A DNA stretch of 64,000 nucleotides, taken from assembly GCA_965200965.1 (NCBI GenBank), contig OZ241744.1:3200001-3264000 (forward strand), written 5' to 3'. This document shows, piece after piece, positions 28 to 9,607 of the stretch. A model generated the notes under the pieces. That model was not told the origin of the DNA, did not search any database, and saw only the letters and a list, made by a program, of their open reading frames with translations. How positions within the stretch are numbered: the first letter of the stretch is position 1; every line of letters begins with the position of its first letter. The DNA comes from an uncultured Candidatus Binatia bacterium. Lineage in GTDB: Bacteria > Desulfobacterota > Binatia > Bin18. The translations under genes and the position numbers were made by a program.

Positions 28-468
28 CTAATGCGCGGCCTTTTTCTTGCTCTTCTTGCGTTTGACCCGGGTGAGCAGCGAGACATAGCTGATGCCGTCC
101 CGGTTGTCCTGGGTGGTGGGCAGCTGGTGTTTGCGCCAGCCGGGAAAGCCGTCCGGCATGACACGCACATCGCTGTAGCCGGCTTCGGCCAGCTTTTGGG
201 CCGCCTGACCGGCCCGCTCCCCGTCGTCGCAGCCGGTGATCAGCGGTGCGTCTTTGGCGTACAGGTCTTCCACCACCTGGAGAAAGCTCTGGTTGGGGAA
301 GACCGCTTTGGTGCCAGGATGGAAAAAGACCAGCGGGATATTCACTACCCTGCCCTTGGGGTGGCCGGTGGAAAACTCGGCCACCGTCCGCACATCAAGA
401 TAGGTCGCGGGATTCTCGCCGCCCAGGGCGGCGCGGACTTCCGGGGGGCTGATGACTGGGTGATTCAT
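28..468 (-). CDS. Rhodanese-like sulfurtransferase
   Basis: LDVRTVAEFSTGHPKG..VNIP N-terminal rhodanese motif, active-loop Cys (GCDDGER), GGxxxW-like motif (DGFPGW), Lys-rich tail. Confidence 0.88.
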   Translation of the reverse strand: MNHPVISPPEVRAALGGENPATYLDVRTVAEFSTGHPKGRVVNIPLVFFHPGTKAVFPNQSFLQVVEDLYAKDAPLITGCDDGERAGQAAQKLAEAGYSDVRVMPDGFPGWRKHQLPTTQDNRDGISYVSLLTRVKRKKSKKKAAH

Positions 469-497
469 ACGCGTACTCCTGACGATGCTGAGGCGGC

Positions 498-758
498 TCA
501 GGCCACGCTCTCGAAGCTGTCGAACTCGTTGACCAGGGGTGGAATAATCCGGCAGCGTTCGCGGCCGGCAGCCGGCGGCTGGCCGTTCAGGCGGTAGACG
601 ATACCGTCGGCCTCTTGTGTCGCGGTGCTCTCTTCAAGATGATAGTGGAGATACGGGCCGTCCGGCGACAGGGCAAAGATACATTCTAAGACTTTGCGGG
701 CGGGCAGTTTGCCCAGCGTGGGATGTAACAGGGCCTCGCTTGGTTTGCTGTTACTCAT
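498..758 (-). CDS. Small hypothetical protein (86 aa)
   Basis: ATG at 758 preceded by AAGGAG; co-oriented with and 29 bp upstream of the rhodanese; no family recognised. Confidence 0.6.
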   Translation of the reverse strand: MSNSKPSEALLHPTLGKLPARKVLECIFALSPDGPYLHYHLEESTATQEADGIVYRLNGQPPAAGRERCRIIPPLVNEFDSFESVA

Positions 759-867
759 GCGGCTGGTCTCCTTCGGCGTCTCGGATATTTCTTTTTCTCC
801 ATACGTCTTTTTTCCTTGACAGGCAATCAAGAACCGGATTACATAGCGGACACGGAAGGAGGGCCGT

Positions 868-1521
868 ATGTCTGCATTGCCCCAGAAAGAGCTGGCCAAT
901 GGGGAGGTCTGGTATCAACCGGGCGAAAAAGTCCCCAATGTCAACAAAAAGCTCTTTGCCCTGCAAAACCTGTGCACCGATTGCAAAATCTGCGAGGTGG
1001 CCTGCTCGCTCATCCACTCGCCCGAGGGGGAACTCAATCCGCTGTGGACCCGCATCAAAATTGAGCATGTGCCGACTGTAGACACGCGGGTCAGCAAGGA
1101 CGGCTTCGGCTTTGTGGCCGAGATCTGCCATCACTGCGCCAACCCCCCGCCGTGCGCCAAGGTGTGCCCAACGGACGCCTTCTACTATGACCCCGTCACC
1201 CAAGCCGCCATTATTGACCAGGGCAAGTGCATCCAGTGCATGGAATGCGTACCGGCCTGTCCGTTTGACACGGTCTTTGTCGCTCCCAGCGGTGAGGTGC
1301 TCAAATGCGACCTGTGCGGGGGCGATCCGGCGTGTGTCAAGGCGTGCTCGACCCGGCCTGAACTGCTGAACGCGGGAAAACAGTACAACCGCTCAAGCGT
1401 ACTGTTCTTTGAGGAAAAGGCGGCATTCAGCGCCATACTGCGCCAAACGCCAGAGCGACGGGATGAAGTCGGCATCATGCAAGCCATGCTGTCAAAGGGG
1501 AAAATCAGCAGCTCTGCGTGA
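868..1521 (+). CDS. 4x[4Fe-4S] polyferredoxin, electron-transfer subunit of WOR module 1
   Basis: CTDCKICEVAC, CHHCANPPPCAKVCP, CIQCMECVPACP and CDLCGGDPACVKAC motifs; GAAGGAGG RBS. Confidence 0.93.
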   Translation: MSALPQKELANGEVWYQPGEKVPNVNKKLFALQNLCTDCKICEVACSLIHSPEGELNPLWTRIKIEHVPTVDTRVSKDGFGFVAEICHHCANPPPCAKVCPTDAFYYDPVTQAAIIDQGKCIQCMECVPACPFDTVFVAPSGEVLKCDLCGGDPACVKACSTRPELLNAGKQYNRSSVLFFEEKAAFSAILRQTPERRDEVGIMQAMLSKGKISSSA

Positions 1522-1557
1522 CGCTTAGAGCGGACCGGACAACAAGGAGTCTCAGCT

Positions 1558-3582
1558 ATGGAAAGTCGTCTGCTGCGGGTTGATTTAAGTACCAACGAGA
1601 TCAAGACTGAGAAGATTCCCCACTCGCTGTTTGAGCGCTGGATTGGCGGCTCGGGGATGAACAACTGGATCATGTGGGAGCACTTCCTGAGCCACGATAT
1701 CAACTGTGATCCGCGCGGGCCGGACAATATCTTTGTGTTTGGCGTCGGGCCGCTGGCCGGCACCGGAGCGGGGATTGGGGTCAAGGGCCGCATTACGTTC
1801 AAAAGCCCATGTTACGGGATTTTTGGTGACTCGACCGGTGGCGGCAAGTTCCCCTACGCTATTCGCTTCAGCGGCTATGACTATATTGCCGTGACCGGCA
1901 GAGCGCCCAAGCCGGTCTATCTGCATATTGCCAACGACGAGGTGACGCTCTGTGATGCCCGACACCTGTGGGGCAAGGACAGCTCAGAGACGCACGCCGT
2001 GCTGCAAAAAGAGTTGGGCGACTATCCGTCACAGGCCTATACGCTGTCCATCGGTCAGGCCGGCGAGAACCAGGTCGGCATTGCCGGTGTGATCTCGGAC
2101 GGCTGGCGGATTCACGCCCGCTGCGGCGGCGGCGCGGTGATGGGCTCTAAGAACCTCAAAGCCATTGCGGTCCAGGGCAATCTGGGCATCAGGGTCGATA
2201 ACCCTGCGGGTCTGCTGGACTGGTCGGACGATTTTCGCCAGAAAATTGATACCAATGAGGCCGGTTATGGCTTTAAGCGGCGGGGCACGCTGGGGGCGGT
2301 GGAGATGTACCAGCGGATCGGTGGTAATTTCTGGCGGAACAACCAGGGCAGCCTGTTCCGGGGCGAAGAAGTCCGCTCCGACAACTGGGTCAAGAAGTAC
2401 CACAAATACTCCGAGGTCTGCTCCTCTGACTGCTACATCGCCTGCGATGGTCGGTATAAAATCGAGGGCCATGAGTCAGACCGGGCCGGAAAATATATTG
2501 GCGAGTCCTTCCGCCATCCCGAGTATCTGACCACCGGCAGCAGTGCCGGTGCGCTGGATGTCCGTGACTGGGCCGAAGTAGCCCACTGGGGCAAGATCAC
2601 CAACGAGTACGGCATTGATAACCAGGACCTGAGTTGCTCCATCAGCTTCGTCATGGAGTTGAGGCAGCGGGAGCTGATCTCCGACGCCGATGTGGCCGAA
2701 CTGTTCGGCAGACCCCAGCGGCTCGAATGGGGCAATATGGACGATATTGAGAGCTTGGTGCGGAGTGTGGTCTACCAGGAGAACCCGTTCGGCTGGATGT
2801 TCCGTGATGGAGCCTACTGGGGCGCGCTGCGCTACTCCGAGAAGATGGGCCAGAACTTTATGAAATACGCCATCTACGGCAAGGGCGGGGCCAGCTTCAC
2901 CGAGGAGATGCGGCCGTTTCCGACCTGGATGAACAATATGGCGGTAGCGTCGCGCGGGGCCGACCATCTCAAAGGCATTGGCCTGATCGAAAAATTCCAG
3001 CGCAAAGACCTGTCCAAGGCGTATTTTGGGACACCGATCGCCGGCGATCCAACCGTGCCCGACCTCAAAGGTGCCTGCACCGCGGTCATTGAGAACCAAG
3101 TGGCGCTGATCAACTCCTACGGGGTGTGCATGTTCCACTGGCTGCTTGACCCGCTGGGCTATGCGCCGGAGAGTTACTACGGCAAAGCCTACGCTGAGGT
3201 GACCGGAATTGACCGGACCAAAGAAGAGTTGATGCGGGACGGCGAACGGATCTGTAACCTGGAGAAAGCCTTTAACTCGCGCCTGGGGATGCGGCGGGAA
3301 CACGACACCATCTGTGAGCGCTGGATGCACGAGCCCGCGCCGGAAGGCATGTATGCAGGCCGGGTGGCGGCCGATATGTTTGATCAGGTCCTGGACGAGT
3401 ACTACGAGTGGCGCGGCTGGGACACCACAACCGGCCTGCAAACGCGCCCCAAGCTCGAAGAACTGGGCCTGGAAGATGTGGCCGATGTGCTGGCCGCAGA
3501 CAGAGCCCTGGCCGGTGAACAGGGCCGCAAGTCGGTGCAGGTGCTCAAAGCGCCAAGCGCTGAGCCCGGTCTGCCGGACTAA
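1558..3582 (+). CDS. Aldehyde:ferredoxin oxidoreductase family (W/Mo-bis-pterin) catalytic subunit, divergent type
   Basis: LLRVDLS start, IGQAGEN, GAVMGSKNLKAIAV, RGADHL, GERICNLEKAFN, EYYEWRGWD..G...KLEELGL; AAGGAG RBS. Confidence 0.95.
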   Translation: MESRLLRVDLSTNEIKTEKIPHSLFERWIGGSGMNNWIMWEHFLSHDINCDPRGPDNIFVFGVGPLAGTGAGIGVKGRITFKSPCYGIFGDSTGGGKFPYAIRFSGYDYIAVTGRAPKPVYLHIANDEVTLCDARHLWGKDSSETHAVLQKELGDYPSQAYTLSIGQAGENQVGIAGVISDGWRIHARCGGGAVMGSKNLKAIAVQGNLGIRVDNPAGLLDWSDDFRQKIDTNEAGYGFKRRGTLGAVEMYQRIGGNFWRNNQGSLFRGEEVRSDNWVKKYHKYSEVCSSDCYIACDGRYKIEGHESDRAGKYIGESFRHPEYLTTGSSAGALDVRDWAEVAHWGKITNEYGIDNQDLSCSISFVMELRQRELISDADVAELFGRPQRLEWGNMDDIESLVRSVVYQENPFGWMFRDGAYWGALRYSEKMGQNFMKYAIYGKGGASFTEEMRPFPTWMNNMAVASRGADHLKGIGLIEKFQRKDLSKAYFGTPIAGDPTVPDLKGACTAVIENQVALINSYGVCMFHWLLDPLGYAPESYYGKAYAEVTGIDRTKEELMRDGERICNLEKAFNSRLGMRREHDTICERWMHEPAPEGMYAGRVAADMFDQVLDEYYEWRGWDTTTGLQTRPKLEELGLEDVADVLAADRALAGEQGRKSVQVLKAPSAEPGLPD

Positions 3583-3590
3583 AGCCTGGA

Positions 3591-3615
3591 GGCCCTTTCC
3601 TGTCAGGGGAGGGTC
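3591..3615 (+). other. Intercistronic stem-loop
   Basis: GGCCCTTTCC-TGTCA-GGGGAGGGTC imperfect inverted repeat between the AOR stop and moaD; no U-tract. Confidence 0.4.
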
Positions 3616-3638
3616 GCCTAGCAACAGAGGACCCTGGC

Positions 3639-3920
3639 GTGATTACAGTCCACACGGAATATCAGGCCCGTTTCCGGGAAATTACCCAGGTTGCGGGAGA
3701 GAGTTTCCAGCTTGAGCAGCCGCTGGTGTCTGAACTGGCCGAGCAGATTACCCAAAAATATGGCACCGAGATGCAGGCGTTGCTGATCGATCCTGACACG
3801 AACGACCTGAACACCAAGGGCACGCTGTATCTCGACTCAAAGGGCAATCGGATTTTTATTGACGATAGCCTGGAAGACGGCGAGACGGTCATCTTCATGG
3901 TCGGGATCGCCGGCGGCTGA
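3639..3920 (+). CDS. MoaD/ThiS ubiquitin-like sulfur carrier
   Basis: 93 aa beta-grasp size, ends LEDGETVIFMVGIAGG with a free C-terminal GG; follows the AOR gene. Confidence 0.88.
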   Translation: MITVHTEYQARFREITQVAGESFQLEQPLVSELAEQITQKYGTEMQALLIDPDTNDLNTKGTLYLDSKGNRIFIDDSLEDGETVIFMVGIAGG

Positions 3921-3963: not shown

Positions 3964-5295
3964 CTACTCTGAAGGAGCGGTCTCCCCGCCGATAAAGACA
4001 ATGTGCCCGGCTTCGTTCTGGGCCTTGATGCGGGCTTCAAGAGCCGCCGGCAGCGTAATCGTTCGCTCGGTCGGAAACTTGTCCCGGTACAGATGCGGGC
4101 GCAGATAGAACTCTTCGGGGCTGCTCACCCCGGCCTGGGTTTTGAGCGGCACTGGAAACCAGCCACGACGCATGAAATCGGGATTGAAAAACACATCTCT
4201 ATCGGCTTGGCTCCACTCGCGCAACTCCATCGCATCATGCACCCCGTAGGAATAGAAGTCCTGCTGCGGGTCCCACCACAGGGAGAGCAGGTTGTGATAG
4301 CCCTGCTCCTTGAGCGCGGGGTTCATCAACTCGGCGAGGCGCTCTTCAATCAAGACAAGTTCGCCCTCCGGTCCATAGGTCTCACTGCGCAGGGGATAGA
4401 AGTACTCCTGGTCAACCCAGTACAGAATCCGGGGCGCGTAATAGCCGGGCAGCCAGTCCTGTTTTGCCGTGGCCTCCATCACATATGTGCGGACACCCCC
4501 GTCTTCGGTGTAGTAAGGGTAGGCTTCGCCCATCAGCTTGAGGTCTGAGGCCGGCACGTCGATAAAGGAGCCGTCTTTTGTGCGCAGGGTCATGAACTGA
4601 CGGGTGGTCGGAAACCGGGCGGTCTCGTACAGGACATCGGTGCCAATCACCCGCCACGAAAACTCCCAGGCGTCACGGCCTAAAAAGTCGTCATAGGCGA
4701 CCGGCTGGTTGGGAAATTTGTCCTGACGCCGCGGCTGCGGAAAGCGACGCACGCGACGCAGGGTCGGCGAGTAGCCGAACATGTCGGCCTTCTTGGTGAG
4801 TTCTTTATCGGTCCGATAGGTGGTAAACAGCAGTTGGTTGCCATGCCTTTCCGGCGGGGCGATATCCTGGCTCAGCCAGCGTGAGAAGATGTCGCCGGGT
4901 TTGGCCCGGATCTGGCCCATCAGGCCGGCCGGCTCCTGATATTGGACCAGGACAATAATCTGGTTAATGAACAAATAGCCGGTCGGGGTCAGGGTGCCGC
5001 TGTCTTCGATCTGGACACAGTTCCAGCGTGGCATGTGGGGGAACTCCATCGCGCGAAAGCCGATCTCTTCGGGCGTGTAGGGCGGATCGAAAGGGTAGGG
5101 CTCGGCCGGCATATACGGGATGGTGGCATCGCGTGGCGTATCGGTTGAAAAGTCGAGCCGCTGACGTTCTTCGGGCGTCAGTTCTGACACAAGCCGCCAG
5201 CTGCGTTCGGCCGGCGTGTCGGCCGCCCAGGTCGGCGTATGGAACACGAGCAGTGCGGCGAACAGACACGCCAAGCGTCGGTAAGCTGTGGACAT
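3964..5295 (-). CDS. DUF1329-like / outer-membrane lipoprotein-sorting-family secreted protein
   Basis: ATG at 5295 with GGAGG RBS; signal peptide ending TWA-A; YSPTLRRVRR motif; YYAPRILYWVDQEYFYPL. Confidence 0.72.
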   Translation of the reverse strand: MSTAYRRLACLFAALLVFHTPTWAADTPAERSWRLVSELTPEERQRLDFSTDTPRDATIPYMPAEPYPFDPPYTPEEIGFRAMEFPHMPRWNCVQIEDSGTLTPTGYLFINQIIVLVQYQEPAGLMGQIRAKPGDIFSRWLSQDIAPPERHGNQLLFTTYRTDKELTKKADMFGYSPTLRRVRRFPQPRRQDKFPNQPVAYDDFLGRDAWEFSWRVIGTDVLYETARFPTTRQFMTLRTKDGSFIDVPASDLKLMGEAYPYYTEDGGVRTYVMEATAKQDWLPGYYAPRILYWVDQEYFYPLRSETYGPEGELVLIEERLAELMNPALKEQGYHNLLSLWWDPQQDFYSYGVHDAMELREWSQADRDVFFNPDFMRRGWFPVPLKTQAGVSSPEEFYLRPHLYRDKFPTERTITLPAALEARIKAQNEAGHIVFIGGETAPSE

Positions 5296-5408
5296 AATAA
5301 TTCCTCCTGTCAAGCACCCATCCAGCATACCACATTCGTTGCCAGGGCGGGAGGGGACCCCATCGGAGTGCGCGAGATTGGTCGGGTGATCGAGGCTCTC
5401 CCTGACAG

Positions 5409-5436
5409 TTGATCTCTGCGCGCAGAGGTTTAAGAT
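5409..5436 (+). promoter_or_regulatory. Putative sigma70 promoter of WOR module 2 with a palindromic spacer
   Basis: TTGATC-16 nt-TAAGAT; perfect 14-bp palindrome CTCTGCGCGCAGAG at 5414-5427. Confidence 0.4.
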
Positions 5437-5486
5437 AGGCTCAGTTGAGTGCTCTGGGGCCGGTCCCATGAGCGTAAGGAGGGGGT

Positions 5487-5960
5487 ATGAAACAACTCTG
5501 TGTTATCACCGATAAATGCACGGGCTGCGTGCAGTGCGAGTTGGCCTGCGCGTTTGTCCAAACCGGTACTTTTCAACCGGCCCGATCCGTGATCCGGGTC
5601 CACATCTTTGACGAGCAGGCCGTGTACTCGCCCTACACCTGCTTTCAGTGCGAAGAAGCCTGGTGTCTGACCGCCTGCCCGGTCAACGCGATCGCCATTG
5701 ACCCCAACACGGAGGCCAAGGTTGTTATGGACGATGTATGTGTCGGCTGTGCCGTCTGCACGGTGGCCTGTCCGTATGGGACGGTTTTTTACAATCCAGA
5801 CACCCATAAGGCCCTCAAGTGCGACCTGTGCGGCGGCGAGCCGGCCTGCGTCCACTCGTGCCCGACCGGAGCCCTTGAATATGTTGACATGGAGCGGGCC
5901 GACTGGCTGAGCGGCTGGGCAGACCGGGTCAATCATGGGTTTCAAGGTGAACACAGATGA
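5487..5960 (+). CDS. 4x[4Fe-4S] ferredoxin subunit (AorA-like)
   Basis: CTGCVQCELAC, CFQCEEAWCLTACP, CVGCAVCTVACP, CDLCGGEPACVHSCP. Confidence 0.94.
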   Translation: MKQLCVITDKCTGCVQCELACAFVQTGTFQPARSVIRVHIFDEQAVYSPYTCFQCEEAWCLTACPVNAIAIDPNTEAKVVMDDVCVGCAVCTVACPYGTVFYNPDTHKALKCDLCGGEPACVHSCPTGALEYVDMERADWLSGWADRVNHGFQGEHR

Positions 5961-6022
5961 CCCCCTCGTCAGAGCGGCGTTTACCCGGTGACCGAAGCGG
6001 CTGACAAAGAAGGAGGCGGCAT

Positions 6023-7873
6023 ATGGCAAACGGATGGACAGGAACGGTGCTGCGTATCAATCTGACGGAGCGGACCGTCACCAAAGAGCCTCTGAACGAA
6101 CAATGGGCCAGAGAGTATGTTGGCGGACGCGGGCTTGGTGCCCGCTATCTGACCGAGGAGATGGACCCGACGGTTGACGCGCTCAGCCCTGACAACAAGC
6201 TGCTGTTTGTGACCGGCCCGCTGACCGGAACCAGCGCCTCGTGCGGCTCACGCTATATGGTTGTCACCAAGGGGCCGCTGACCAACGCGATCACCACCTC
6301 GAACTCGGGCGGGTACTGGGGGCCGGAACTCAAGTTTGCCGGCTATGACATGGTGATTCTTGAAGGCCGGGCGTCGTCGCCGTGTTACCTGTGGGTCTAT
6401 AACGAAACGGTCGAAATCCGGGAGGCCGATCACCTGTGGGGCAGAACGGTCTGGGAGACCGAGGAACGGCTGCGCGCCGAGCTGGGCGTGCCCGACACGA
6501 TTATCGCCAGCATCGGCCCGGCCGGTGAGAACTTGGTGCGCTTTGCCTGTATCATGAACGATCTGCACCGGGCGGCCGGCCGCTCCGGGGTTGGCGCGGT
6601 CATGGGCTCAAAAAATCTCAAGGCGATTGCCGTGCGAGGGACCGGCGGGGTCACGCTGGCCGACCCGCCAGCCTTTATGAAAGGCATGTGGGAGATGAAA
6701 GAAAAACTCCGCGAGTCGCCGGTCACCTCGCAGGGTCTGCCGATGTACGGCACCGAAGTCCTGGTCAATGTGATCAACGAACACGGGGCACTCCCGACCC
6801 GCAACCACCAGCAGTCGGTGTTTGAAGAGGCCGAAGACATCAGTGGAGAGACGCTGACCGAGACGCGGCTGGTGGCCAATAAAGCCTGTTTTTCCTGCGC
6901 GATTGCGTGTGGACGGGTGTCAACCCTGCCGGGCGAGGCGTCAAGCAAATATGAAGTCAGCACCAGCCCGCGCAACTGGAACATTGCCGGTGAAGGACCG
7001 GAGTATGAGGCCGCCTGGGCCATGGGTTCGGAGTGCGGCATCGGCGATTTGGACGCCCTGATTAAGGCCAACTGGTTATGCAACGATCTGGGTATGGATT
7101 CAATCAGCTTTGGCGCGACAGTGGCCGCGGCAATGGAGATGTACGAAAAGAAAGTCGTGTCGCTTGAACAGACCGAGATTCCGCTGAGCTTTGGCAGTTC
7201 TGAGGCGCTGCTGAGCCTGGCCGAGCGGATCGCCTATCGTCGGGGTTTTGGTGCCGAGCTGGCCGAAGGCTCGAAGCGCATGACCGAGAAGTTCGGTCGC
7301 CCAGAGTTCTTCATGGGCGTACGCGGTCAGGAGTTTGCCGCCTATGAAGCCCGCGCGATTCAAGGCATGGGCCTGGGCTATGCTACCTCGAACCGGGGCG
7401 CATGCCACCTCAAAGCGTATACGGTGGCGGCCGAGATTCTGGGTCTGCCGCGGCAGATGGACCCCAACGAAACCGAGGGCAAGGCCGAACTCACCAAACT
7501 GTTTCAGGACGCGACCTCAACGGTTGACGCCACCGGGCTGTGTCAGTTCCTGACCTTTGGCGTGGGACTGGAAGAGATGCTGCCGCAGTTGGTGGCGGCC
7601 ACCGGGGTCAATTTCAGTCTCGAAGAAACACTGACCATTGGCGAGCGGATCTGGAATCTGGAGCGACACTGGAACGAGCGGGCCGGAGTGGGCAGCAGCG
7701 CAGATACCCTGCCCAAGCGGATTCTGGAGGAACCGCTGCCGTCCGGCCCGGCCAAGGGCAAGGTCAACCGTCTGGGCGAGATGCTGCCTGAGTACTATCA
7801 GCTCCGCGGCTGGGATACAGACGGCAGGCTGACGCCGGAGAAGCTGAAGGAGTTGGGCTTGGACAAAGCCTGA
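6023..7873 (+). CDS. aor: Tungsten aldehyde:ferredoxin oxidoreductase, canonical type (AorB-like)
   Basis: GGRGLG, SNSGGYWGPELKFAGYD, AAGRSGVGAVMGSKNLKA, CFSCAIAC, GPEYE, RGACHL, GLCQF. Confidence 0.96.
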   Translation: MANGWTGTVLRINLTERTVTKEPLNEQWAREYVGGRGLGARYLTEEMDPTVDALSPDNKLLFVTGPLTGTSASCGSRYMVVTKGPLTNAITTSNSGGYWGPELKFAGYDMVILEGRASSPCYLWVYNETVEIREADHLWGRTVWETEERLRAELGVPDTIIASIGPAGENLVRFACIMNDLHRAAGRSGVGAVMGSKNLKAIAVRGTGGVTLADPPAFMKGMWEMKEKLRESPVTSQGLPMYGTEVLVNVINEHGALPTRNHQQSVFEEAEDISGETLTETRLVANKACFSCAIACGRVSTLPGEASSKYEVSTSPRNWNIAGEGPEYEAAWAMGSECGIGDLDALIKANWLCNDLGMDSISFGATVAAAMEMYEKKVVSLEQTEIPLSFGSSEALLSLAERIAYRRGFGAELAEGSKRMTEKFGRPEFFMGVRGQEFAAYEARAIQGMGLGYATSNRGACHLKAYTVAAEILGLPRQMDPNETEGKAELTKLFQDATSTVDATGLCQFLTFGVGLEEMLPQLVAATGVNFSLEETLTIGERIWNLERHWNERAGVGSSADTLPKRILEEPLPSGPAKGKVNRLGEMLPEYYQLRGWDTDGRLTPEKLKELGLDKA

Positions 7874-7883
7874 GGGGTCAACG

Positions 7884-9338
7884 ATGGCACAACATATCAT
7901 TATTGGCGCGGGTCCGGCCGGCCTTGCCGCGGCCGAAACGATTCGGGCCTGCGACCCCAGCGCGGCAGTCAGCCTGATCTCCAGCGAACCGGCCTATTCC
8001 CGCATGGTGCTGCCATATTATCTGGCCCGGGAAATCCCGGAAGAGCATGTCTTGACCGGCAACGAGGATTATTTTGCCGAGCGGAATATCGAGGCGCTGC
8101 TCGGTACCACAGTCACACGGGTCAATGGCGGGCAAAAGACGGTGACGCTCAGCGACGGGACGACCCGTGCGTTTGACCGCCTGCTGCTGGCGTCCGGTTC
8201 GTCCGCCCAACAGCCGCGGATCCCGGGCGGTAATCTGGAGGGAGTGTACTCGTTCTGGACCTTGGGCGATGCGCAACAGGTGATCGCCAAAGCCCGGGCC
8301 AGGCCGAGCGCGGTGCTCATCGGCGCGGGCTTTATCGGTTGTATCGTCCTGAATGCCATGGTCAAACTGAACTGGAAGCTGTCGGTGGTGGAAGCGGAAA
8401 GCCAGGTCCTGCCACGGATGCTGGACGCGGCCGGTGCCGGCGCGGTGGAGGGCTGGCTGACGGCCCGCAATATCGCCGTCCATACCGCCGTCGAGGTCCA
8501 GGAGATTCGGCGCAACGACGGCGGGAACCTGTCGCTGTCGCTCAGTTCGGGACAGACGCTTGAGGCGGAGCTTGTCATCATGGCCACCGGCATTCGTCCC
8601 AATGTTGCTTTTCTGGACGGTTCGGGGGTCCATGTCAAACCCGGCGGTATCCCGGTTGACGACCAGATGCAGACCAATGTCCCGGGGATTTATGCGGCCG
8701 GTGATGTGGCGATTGGACCGGATATGCTGGCCGGCCGAACCGGGCACGACACCCCCGCCACTGCCCACGCCATCCAGCCGACCGCGGTAGACCACGGCCG
8801 GATTGCCGGGGCCAACATGGCCGGCCACGAGATCCATTATCCGGGCAGCCTGCTGCTCAACGTCCTCGACGTGGTCAAGTTGCACTGCGCCAGCTTTGGC
8901 CTGTGGCGGGACGAGGGGCACGACACCACAACGGTGTTCAACCCCAGCCGGCCAATCTACCGCAAGTATGTGTGGCACGAAGACCGTATCGTTGGTGCCC
9001 TGTTTGTCGGGCCGATTGACGACGTGACGATGCTGAACGATGTAGGCATGGTCAAGGGTTTGATTCAGACCCAGCAGCCTCTGGGTGAGTGGGCTGACTA
9101 CATCAAGACCCACCCGACCGATATCCGCCGTGCCTACATTGCCAGCGGGGCGGCCCAGGCCCTTATCGGGCGGACGCTGCTCGGCGCACCGTCCCGCGAC
9201 CGCGCCTATCGGGTTGGCGGGAAAGTGCCGCCGGTCTGGGATAAGACCGCCACCCACATGCCGCTGCTCAGCGCCCAGTCCGAGCGCTACCGTGAACTGA
9301 GTCCGACACCCACGCCGGGGATTGGAAAGGCCGACTGA
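7884..9338 (+). CDS. FAD/NAD(P)-dependent oxidoreductase (AorC-like)
   Basis: IIGAGPAG FAD motif, IGAGFIG NAD motif, TNVPGIYAAGD. Confidence 0.92.
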   Translation: MAQHIIIGAGPAGLAAAETIRACDPSAAVSLISSEPAYSRMVLPYYLAREIPEEHVLTGNEDYFAERNIEALLGTTVTRVNGGQKTVTLSDGTTRAFDRLLLASGSSAQQPRIPGGNLEGVYSFWTLGDAQQVIAKARARPSAVLIGAGFIGCIVLNAMVKLNWKLSVVEAESQVLPRMLDAAGAGAVEGWLTARNIAVHTAVEVQEIRRNDGGNLSLSLSSGQTLEAELVIMATGIRPNVAFLDGSGVHVKPGGIPVDDQMQTNVPGIYAAGDVAIGPDMLAGRTGHDTPATAHAIQPTAVDHGRIAGANMAGHEIHYPGSLLLNVLDVVKLHCASFGLWRDEGHDTTTVFNPSRPIYRKYVWHEDRIVGALFVGPIDDVTMLNDVGMVKGLIQTQQPLGEWADYIKTHPTDIRRAYIASGAAQALIGRTLLGAPSRDRAYRVGGKVPPVWDKTATHMPLLSAQSERYRELSPTPTPGIGKAD

Positions 9339-9607
9339 TGGAAGTCAAACTCAGGCTGTTTGCCACCCTGCGCAAAAAGCTGCCGCCCGGCTCCAAGGCC
9401 GGCAAGGCAGTCCTGACGCTCGGCCAGGACGCCACCATACGCGACGTGATCCGGCAGCTCGACATCCCGGAAGACTTGGCCCAGATGGTGCTGGTCAACG
9501 GCGAACAGACCCGCGCGTTTGATCGATCCCTGACCAACGGCGACAGCCTGAGTATTTTCCCGCCGGTAGCCGGTGGCGCGGGGCAGCCCTCAGCCAATCA
9601 CGCCTGA
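9338..9607 (+). CDS. MoaD/ThiS sulfur carrier with a 9-aa extension after GG
   Basis: VKLRLFATLRK start, VLVNG, LTNGDSLSIFPPVAGG followed by AGQPSANHA; start overlaps the upstream stop (TGATG). Confidence 0.9.
   Translation: MEVKLRLFATLRKKLPPGSKAGKAVLTLGQDATIRDVIRQLDIPEDLAQMVLVNGEQTRAFDRSLTNGDSLSIFPPVAGGAGQPSANHA

Follow-up and report, generated by a model that had tools for sequence, protein, structure and literature searches.

A tungsten-oxidoreductase-family gene module of Candidatus Binatia with a changed active-site second shell and two accessory genes of its own

Introduction

What does an enzyme of the tungsten-containing oxidoreductase (WOR) family do when it lacks the glutamate assigned to its acid-base chemistry? 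The question is raised by a gene module at the start of a 64,000-nucleotide stretch from an uncultured Candidatus Binatia bacterium (GenBank assembly GCA_965200965.1, contig OZ241744.1, positions 3,200,001 to 3,264,000, forward strand); this whole stretch is called the window, and module positions are given in its numbering. The mechanisms of aldehyde oxidoreductase (AOR) described in PMC12096430 and PMC13328260 all assign the key acid-base step to Glu313 (Pyrococcus furiosus numbering). In WorL, the catalytic subunit of this module, leucine stands at that position and acids stand at two others, Asp357 and Glu449, and the arrangement is fixed among close relatives. On this evidence the catalytic carboxylate has probably moved, not vanished.

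Results and Discussion

Genes of the module

The module consists of the following genes, with one candidate promoter element:

28..468, minus strand: rhodanese-fold gene, 146 aa, single domain, active loop C80-DDGER (PF00581, 50.4 bits)
498..758, minus strand: gene for an 86-aa orphan protein without a Pfam match, with invariant C26, H38, H40 and C69 and an RCxIIPP motif
816..821, plus strand: TTGACA hexamer lying some 50 nt before worS, a candidate for a sigma70-like -35 element
868..1521, plus strand: WorS polyferredoxin, 217 aa, 16 Cys, Fer4 domains
1558..3582, plus strand: WorL catalytic subunit, 674 aa, AOR/WOR family (PF02730 and PF01314)
3639..3920, plus strand: MoaD/ThiS-like gene of the WorX type, 93 aa, Gly-Gly end (TIGR01687, 26.7 bits, cut-off 49.5)

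All open reading frames (ORFs), positions and motifs of a preliminary description of this DNA were found as it gave them. WorL carries HPEYLT (residues 320-325), CSSDCYIAC (Cx3Cx3C), IHARCGG and RGADH, and the paralog at 6023-7873 carries GPEYEA, CFSCAIAC, AAGRSGV and RGACH. The gene content is that of a class II WOR: WorL and a four-cluster WorS, no WorN or WorABC, and no twin-arginine translocation (Tat) signal, there being no twin arginine within the first 40 residues of WorS. The 16 cysteines of WorS would hold four 4Fe-4S clusters, and its N- and C-terminal extensions are conserved. The absence of a flavin subunit from the module, noted earlier, was also seen in the 80 related loci examined (the best 80 of 115 confirmed WorL relatives), where matches to the FAD subunit occurred in 11 and always 4.2-7 kb away. 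The MoaD-like protein matches TIGR01687 weakly, below the cut-off, and the VGIAGG C-terminus is invariant among the MoaD-like proteins of the module; a gene of this kind, WorX, is described for many WORs in PMC13328260. CTTGACA was present in 49 of 75 intergenic regions, and a consensus promoter scan did not call a full promoter around the hexamer.

A distinct clade with a conserved module

WorL is 81-97% identical to its closest relatives in Binatia records and 74-79% identical to those in records that are mostly of Gammaproteobacteria. These two groups were assigned by record title and identity, so their names are approximate; some titles (Enterobacteriaceae, Klebsiella and Hydrogenophaga; loci L056, L059, L075, L018, L025 and L049) are at odds with the gene content and suggest mislabelled metagenome-assembled genomes. 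More distant proteins, at about 40-62% identity, make up a wider set, some members of which are labelled Chloroflexota, Tectomicrobia and Deltaproteobacteria. In a FastTree phylogeny of 222 proteins, a set without BamB, GOR, FOR, WOR4 and WOR5, the core (13 rows) and the core plus wider set (74 rows) each fell on one side of a branch with support of 100, and WorL showed distant identity only (22-32%) to nine solved WOR sequences. The suggestion that this is a distinct WOR clade is thus upheld. [quoted passage not shown] Literature searches found no paper describing it, in a coverage that leaves out most subscription journals, and a plasmid search returned best matches of about 32% identity and no clade member.

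The order rhodanese, hypothetical protein, ferredoxin, WOR, MoaD proved to be conserved in nearly all 80 loci: the rhodanese gene was present in 76, and the orphan, WorS and MoaD-like genes in 78 each, every missing gene belonging to a locus at a contig end. One locus (L031) has retained the orphan and rhodanese genes after rearrangement. Among 251 genomes of the class, WorL and the orphan occurred in the identical 33, side by side and all within one family; as these genomes are kin, they do not count as 33 independent events. Besides the source genome, 32 of 35 genomes of the family hold the pair, and the three without it are 82-89% complete. Both genes are duplicated in one genome. Neither the orphan nor the rhodanese gene was seen beside any of 30 wider-clade loci (37-53% identity), only 12 of which have at least 1.9 kb of upstream sequence.

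Loss of Glu313 and two new acids

The conserved second shell described in PMC12096430 consists of Thr243, Glu313, Tyr427 and His448. Positions were mapped onto P. furiosus numbering by counting in pairwise alignments and through the canonical AOR of the window. WorL keeps Thr243 (T244) and His448 (H470), and has L324 for Glu313, E449 for Tyr427, D357 for Ser346, Q356 for Ile345, Lys76 for Arg76, and Ile or Leu for Tyr452. L324, Q356, D357 and E449 were each found in 80 of 80 loci. The preliminary description had overlooked the changes at Ser346, Tyr427 and Arg76 and the loss of Tyr452. The codons of most concern are these:

2527..2529, plus strand: Leu324, at the position of catalytic Glu313, Leu in 80/80 loci
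2626..2628, plus strand: Asp357, aligned with Ser346, foremost candidate for a replacement carboxylate, Asp in 80/80 loci
2902..2904, plus strand: Glu449, aligned with second-shell Tyr427, next candidate carboxylate after Asp357, Glu in 80/80 loci

To what extent are these changes peculiar to the clade? Among 142 other WOR representatives (clustered at 50%), 71 keep Glu313 and 71 do not, and the Asp of RGxDH, found in 84, is the majority state; either change, taken alone, is common in uncharacterised clades. An acid at position 346 was present in all 72 core and wider rows and a Glu at 427 in 61 of the 72, and the two together are the sequence markers of the clade. Outside the clade, 20 of the 60 proteins that lack an acid at 313 have one at 346, as against 2 of the 82 that have the 313 acid (Fisher 4e-7, the top column of all those scanned). 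No characterised WOR carries this residue set.

Three features were considered as functional markers and set aside. The Asp of RGADH is the majority residue elsewhere, the Cys of IHARCGG varies among G, C and S within the clade, and the Cx3Cx3C motif keeps all four cluster ligands, its spacing being found in 55 of 60 wider-clade members.

Covariation was analysed in 148 non-clade rows over residues 230-540 (32,640 pairs, the E449 column having been dropped for gaps). The pair L324-Q356 ranked second of all pairs and T325-N355 had a z of 4.8; the positive controls T244-E322 (Thr243-Glu311) and C292-C524 were recovered. Because of these couplings, the segment 355-357 likely packs against the vacated Glu313 site. 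E449 is placed at the Tyr427 position by a profile alignment and by a gap-free register that sets it 21 residues ahead of the catalytic His, the same distance as in AOR; three of five pairwise alignments agree on this register. From alignment and covariation, D357 and E449 would flank the vacated site and lie near the metal.

Several observations weigh against a relocated carboxylate. Two of the five pairwise alignments set Tyr427 on F447 with a gap. The link between positions 313 and 346 was non-significant once kinship was removed (7 independent pairs, median p 1, an underpowered comparison), and 40 of the 60 other WORs without an acid at 313 have none at 346 either. Outside the clade an acid at 427 showed no link with the loss of Glu313 (10/50 versus 7/80, p 0.11). 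The pair L324-D357 ranked only 321st of the 32,640, and Tyr427 and Tyr452 are both lost in WorL. The possibility that a catalytic acid is retained at a shifted position, named earlier as one that would count against the preliminary interpretation, is nevertheless borne out in part, in that two invariant acids appear to flank the site.

A second rebuilt pocket was observed in a sub-branch of the wider set (P0093, P0101, P0106, P0109, P0111, P0113 and P0118-P0120), in which Gly or Ala stands at 313 and 427 alike and IG(A/G)HH replaces RGADH.

Fold, cofactor ligands and metal

WorL carries the AFOR_N and AFOR_C domains and the AOR fold. Its model (mean predicted local distance difference test score, pLDDT, 93.6) matched 1aor with Z 49.7 and a root-mean-square deviation (rmsd) of 1.6 over 596 residues; 9g7j and 9mqx gave the same Z, and BamB the lowest (39.4). 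The cluster cysteines C288, C292, C296 and C524 and the pterin-binding residues R184, R188, D354, R466 and K472 are present. T244, E322, H470, D354, R188, R466, K472 and the four cluster cysteines are conserved in 78-80 of the 78-80 loci that span the respective site. Residues 297-359 contain no Cys, and hence no metal ligand of the BamB/YdhV type; the comparison covered the region of YdhV Cys336.

The metal is likely tungsten, because TupA-like genes are found in the source genome (208 bits, cut-off 400, with adjoining permease and ATPase genes) and in all 46 gammaproteobacterial host genomes, against 2 of 14 controls, and the source genome also has three MoeA matches. One point tells against this assignment: no TupA match, in the source genome or the 46 hosts, attains the NCBIfam cut-off. 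The use of molybdenum, as in YdhV, would be in keeping with those sub-threshold matches, with the haem-copper oxidase of the source genome and with a Tup system that could serve the other WORs. It seems very improbable, given the presence of TupA-like genes in every host and the position of WorL outside the YdhV family (profile NF007354: 228 bits, cut-off 868); molybdenum use is reported mainly for the YdhV clade (PMC13328260). The GAPOR profile NF040818 was matched with 38 bits (cut-off 1300).

The source genome has three WOR genes in total, and 44 of the 46 gammaproteobacterial hosts gave at least three WOR matches, which are not strict copy numbers. These uncultured Gammaproteobacteria (G301-G346) mostly have 3-5 WOR matches along with TupA-like genes, even at 2.1-2.3 Mb. 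Because hosts keep several WOR paralogs, a job distinct from that of the canonical AOR is likely. Could WorL be an ordinary broad-range aldehyde oxidoreductase in which the residue changes are neutral? The 71 other representatives without Glu313 indicate a site that tolerates change, and most characterised WORs oxidise many aldehydes (PMC13328260). This explanation is nonetheless improbable in light of 74-97% identity across two phyla in hosts that hold other WOR paralogs, small genomes among them, and of accessory genes that are absent beside the 30 wider-clade loci.

The orphan protein

The orphan had 302 homologue clusters, and no Pfam family among the 120 listed. C26, H38, H40 and C69 are invariant and may form a metal site; an RCxIIPPxV motif is also conserved. 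The model is beta-rich (pLDDT 89.9). Foldseek returned nothing at E<=0.001, a wide structural search gave a best Z of 3.4 with 0 of 48,161 chains at Z>=5, only weak PRC-barrel/SH3-like rows were seen, and the Atlas held nothing at 0.9 or above, none of which proves a new fold.

The orphan is predicted to bind WorL, as a subunit or a chaperone. In a three-chain job (WorL, orphan and rhodanese, with custom-made alignments), the pair of orphan and WorL scored 0.89 and the best control 0.00, with a run agreement of at least 0% and a partner pLDDT of at least 60. In a calibration that holds only roughly for such alignments, 116 of 157 solved complexes attained this mark, as did 2 of 215 mismatched pairs. 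The predicted contacts join the RCxIIPPxV motif to WorL residues 420-444 and 576-591, among them G443-G444, which belong to the loop that runs to E449, and interface residues L424, S427, N433, M435 and H582 are fixed in the core and different in the orphan-free wider clade. Some points speak against the complex: one of the three runs scored 0.00 (the others 0.89 and 0.92), the job combined three chains and custom-made alignments, and average conservation at the interface equals the whole-protein average (0.846 for both). No confident orphan-rhodanese contact was listed in this job, in which the rhodanese itself was unscored.

The rhodanese-fold protein

The best solved match of the rhodanese-fold protein is to Arabidopsis single-domain rhodaneses of the 1TQ1 type (E 1.7e-17); most gammaproteobacterial copies of the module gene have lost the catalytic Cys. 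The copy in the window has C80 at the head of the active loop, as do all 34 full-length copies of the Binatia group (34 of 35 rows, one row being incomplete). Only 5 of 42 gammaproteobacterial copies have this Cys; in the other 37 it is replaced by G, A, S or D, and 19 of the 42 ORFs are entirely free of Cys. Acidic loops are frequent, and the rest of the protein is well conserved. A Lys-rich tail (28-70, minus strand) is found in Binatia-group copies and is shorter or absent in many gammaproteobacterial ones.

The protein had been proposed to load sulfur onto the MoaD of the module. Transfer from a rhodanese to a MoaD-type protein has precedents in YnjE and MOCS3, and the loop Cys in the Binatia group and the tight linkage of the genes would suit an active sulfurtransferase that persulfurates the MoaD for cofactor synthesis. 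This proposal is unlikely, and as the conserved function it is not supported. The gene stays in the module where the Cys is gone, so persulfide transfer cannot be the module-wide job, and the often acidic loop does not favour it. Elsewhere the source genome also encodes a rhodanese-MoeB fusion, whose gene adjoins that of another MoaD-like protein, as well as a rhodanese paralog (C1:1457876-1458376, plus strand) with an intact CQAGVRS loop and the shared C-terminal motif, unlinked to a WOR gene. Of the 46 gammaproteobacterial hosts, 30 were searched for MoeB and 29 of these gave a match. The likely role of the rhodanese-fold protein is that of an accessory without catalytic activity; the Binatia copies may retain persulfide transfer, a point that touches this accessory gene only.

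Proposed function

On the evidence above, the module would be a cytoplasmic tungsten oxidoreductase, formed by WorL and WorS, that oxidises a specialised aldehyde-level substrate, with the carboxylate moved to Asp357 and/or Glu449; we hold this reading to be evenly balanced between right and wrong. The substrate would be polar and different from those of the other two WORs in the genome. Thr244 and His470 would assist the transfer, at the tungsten, of oxygen derived from water, together with the new acid, so that D357 and/or E449 would stand in for Glu313. Electrons would pass from tungsten through the one cluster of WorL and the four of WorS, five in all, to ferredoxin. The orphan would bind the catalytic subunit, the MoaD-like protein would serve sulfur insertion into the pterin after charging by the housekeeping MoeB, and the rhodanese-fold protein would take no catalytic part.

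The preliminary description favoured a different substrate or reaction. A different substrate still fits; a different reaction type is less certain than that, because the two invariant acids would lie beside the vacated site. A non-aldehyde reaction close to that earlier proposal (for example the hydroxylation or reduction of a CoA ester, an imine or an N-heterocycle), with the new acids binding the substrate instead of replacing Glu313, is the main rival, though a tentative, minority possibility. Two of the four second-shell residues are changed, and PMC12096430 describes the two clades lacking the second shell (BamB and YdhV) as not being aldehyde oxidisers and WOR4, with Tyr replaced by Trp, as inactive. 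The neighbours of the wider clade include enoyl-CoA hydratases (L092, L096, L104 and L146), acyl-CoA dehydrogenases (L104 and L143), enzymes dependent on thiamine diphosphate (ThDP; L091 and L137) and RidA-like genes (L120, L140 and L146), but the same neighbours fit aldehyde clean-up equally well, and in the core clade no pathway gene is conserved next to the module. WorL also keeps the Thr and His, has no protein ligand to the metal, and is closest to AORs in fold and sequence. A bolder version is doubtful: a tungsten enzyme of oxygen-respiring bacteria in which WorL and WorS are joined by a third, new and small subunit that binds metal through Cys and His, a rhodanese devoid of Cys helps in maturation, and a rebuilt Asp/Glu/Gln/His pocket carries out a non-aldehyde reaction new for tungsten.

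Assignment of a substrate from neighbouring genes was tried and abandoned, since the flanks differ between lineages and yield no pathway; beyond the five-gene module, no gene was common to both host groups throughout.

Comparison with known systems

AOR sensu stricto (clade 87: 1AOR, A. mobile WOR1 9MQX, C. autoethanogenum AOR 9G7J and A. aromaticum AorABC 8C0Z) shares with WorL the fold (rmsd 1.6-2.2), the four cluster cysteines, the pterin ligands, Thr243, Glu311, Tyr312, His448 and a nearby MoaD-like gene. WorL differs in its identity of about 27-32% and in the replacements Glu313 to Leu, Tyr427 to Glu, Ser346 to Asp, Tyr452 to Ile and Arg76 to Lys, and the module differs in having no FAD subunit and two extra accessory genes. 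WorL departs from the second-shell set of AOR, FOR and GOR, since all 80 loci have Leu in place of Glu313 and Glu in place of Tyr427.

The class II WORs, P. furiosus WOR5 (ASOR, 6X1O) and C. bescii GOR, share the pairing of WorL with a four-cluster WorS and the absence of flavin and Tat signal. ASOR, to which WorL is about 24% identical, is a precedent for a second-shell change that goes with a new substrate. It differs from WorL in keeping the Glu and having His at 427, Tyr for a conserved Arg and no Thr (WorL has L324, E449, R188 and T244), whereas GOR, compared by description, keeps all four second-shell residues; both sets are as reported in PMC12096430. BamB (the class II benzoyl-CoA reductase, 4Z3W) and Escherichia coli YdhV share the family, the fold and the loss of the usual second-shell set. 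Unlike them, WorL has no Cys metal ligand, keeps the Thr and His, and is not accompanied by BamD-I or Ydh-type genes. For BamB and WOR5 the residues compared are those given in the same source and not from residue-level alignments. Thus by gene content the module is a class II WOR, and by sequence it fails the defining residues of AOR/FOR/GOR, ASOR and BamB/YdhV.

Neighbouring genes

A canonical AorABC-type operon lies at 5487-9607 of the window and encodes a WorS, a WorL with an intact second shell, an FAD subunit and a MoaD; the five closest relatives alone have it next to the module. A gene for a DUF1329/LolA-like protein (3964-5469, minus strand) separates this operon from the module. DUF1329/LolA-like genes also flank the third WOR of the source genome (at about 1.80 Mb), beside a MobA-like gene. 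Wider-clade WORs often adjoin genes of CoA metabolism, and some adjoin ThDP-dependent enzymes (L091 and L137) or RidA-like genes (L120, L140 and L146). In one locus (L092:1125-4906) a wider-clade WOR is directly downstream of four bacterial microcompartment shell genes, which suggests a microcompartment-linked WOR.

Implications

The module is real and conserved, and it marks a WOR clade without characterised members whose second shell is rebuilt and which has two clade-specific accessory genes; the product of one of these, from a protein family that has no name, is predicted to bind the enzyme. A widespread clade that lacks Glu313 and has fixed two other acids is a natural test of the mechanisms proposed for AOR, and it points to the exact side chains for such a test. 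If it is a subunit, the small protein would extend the current five-class WOR scheme by a component that the scheme does not contain. The module is near-universal in one Binatia family and is shared, at about 77% identity, with uncultured Gammaproteobacteria, so that its likely role is in some step of carbon turnover common to these organisms.

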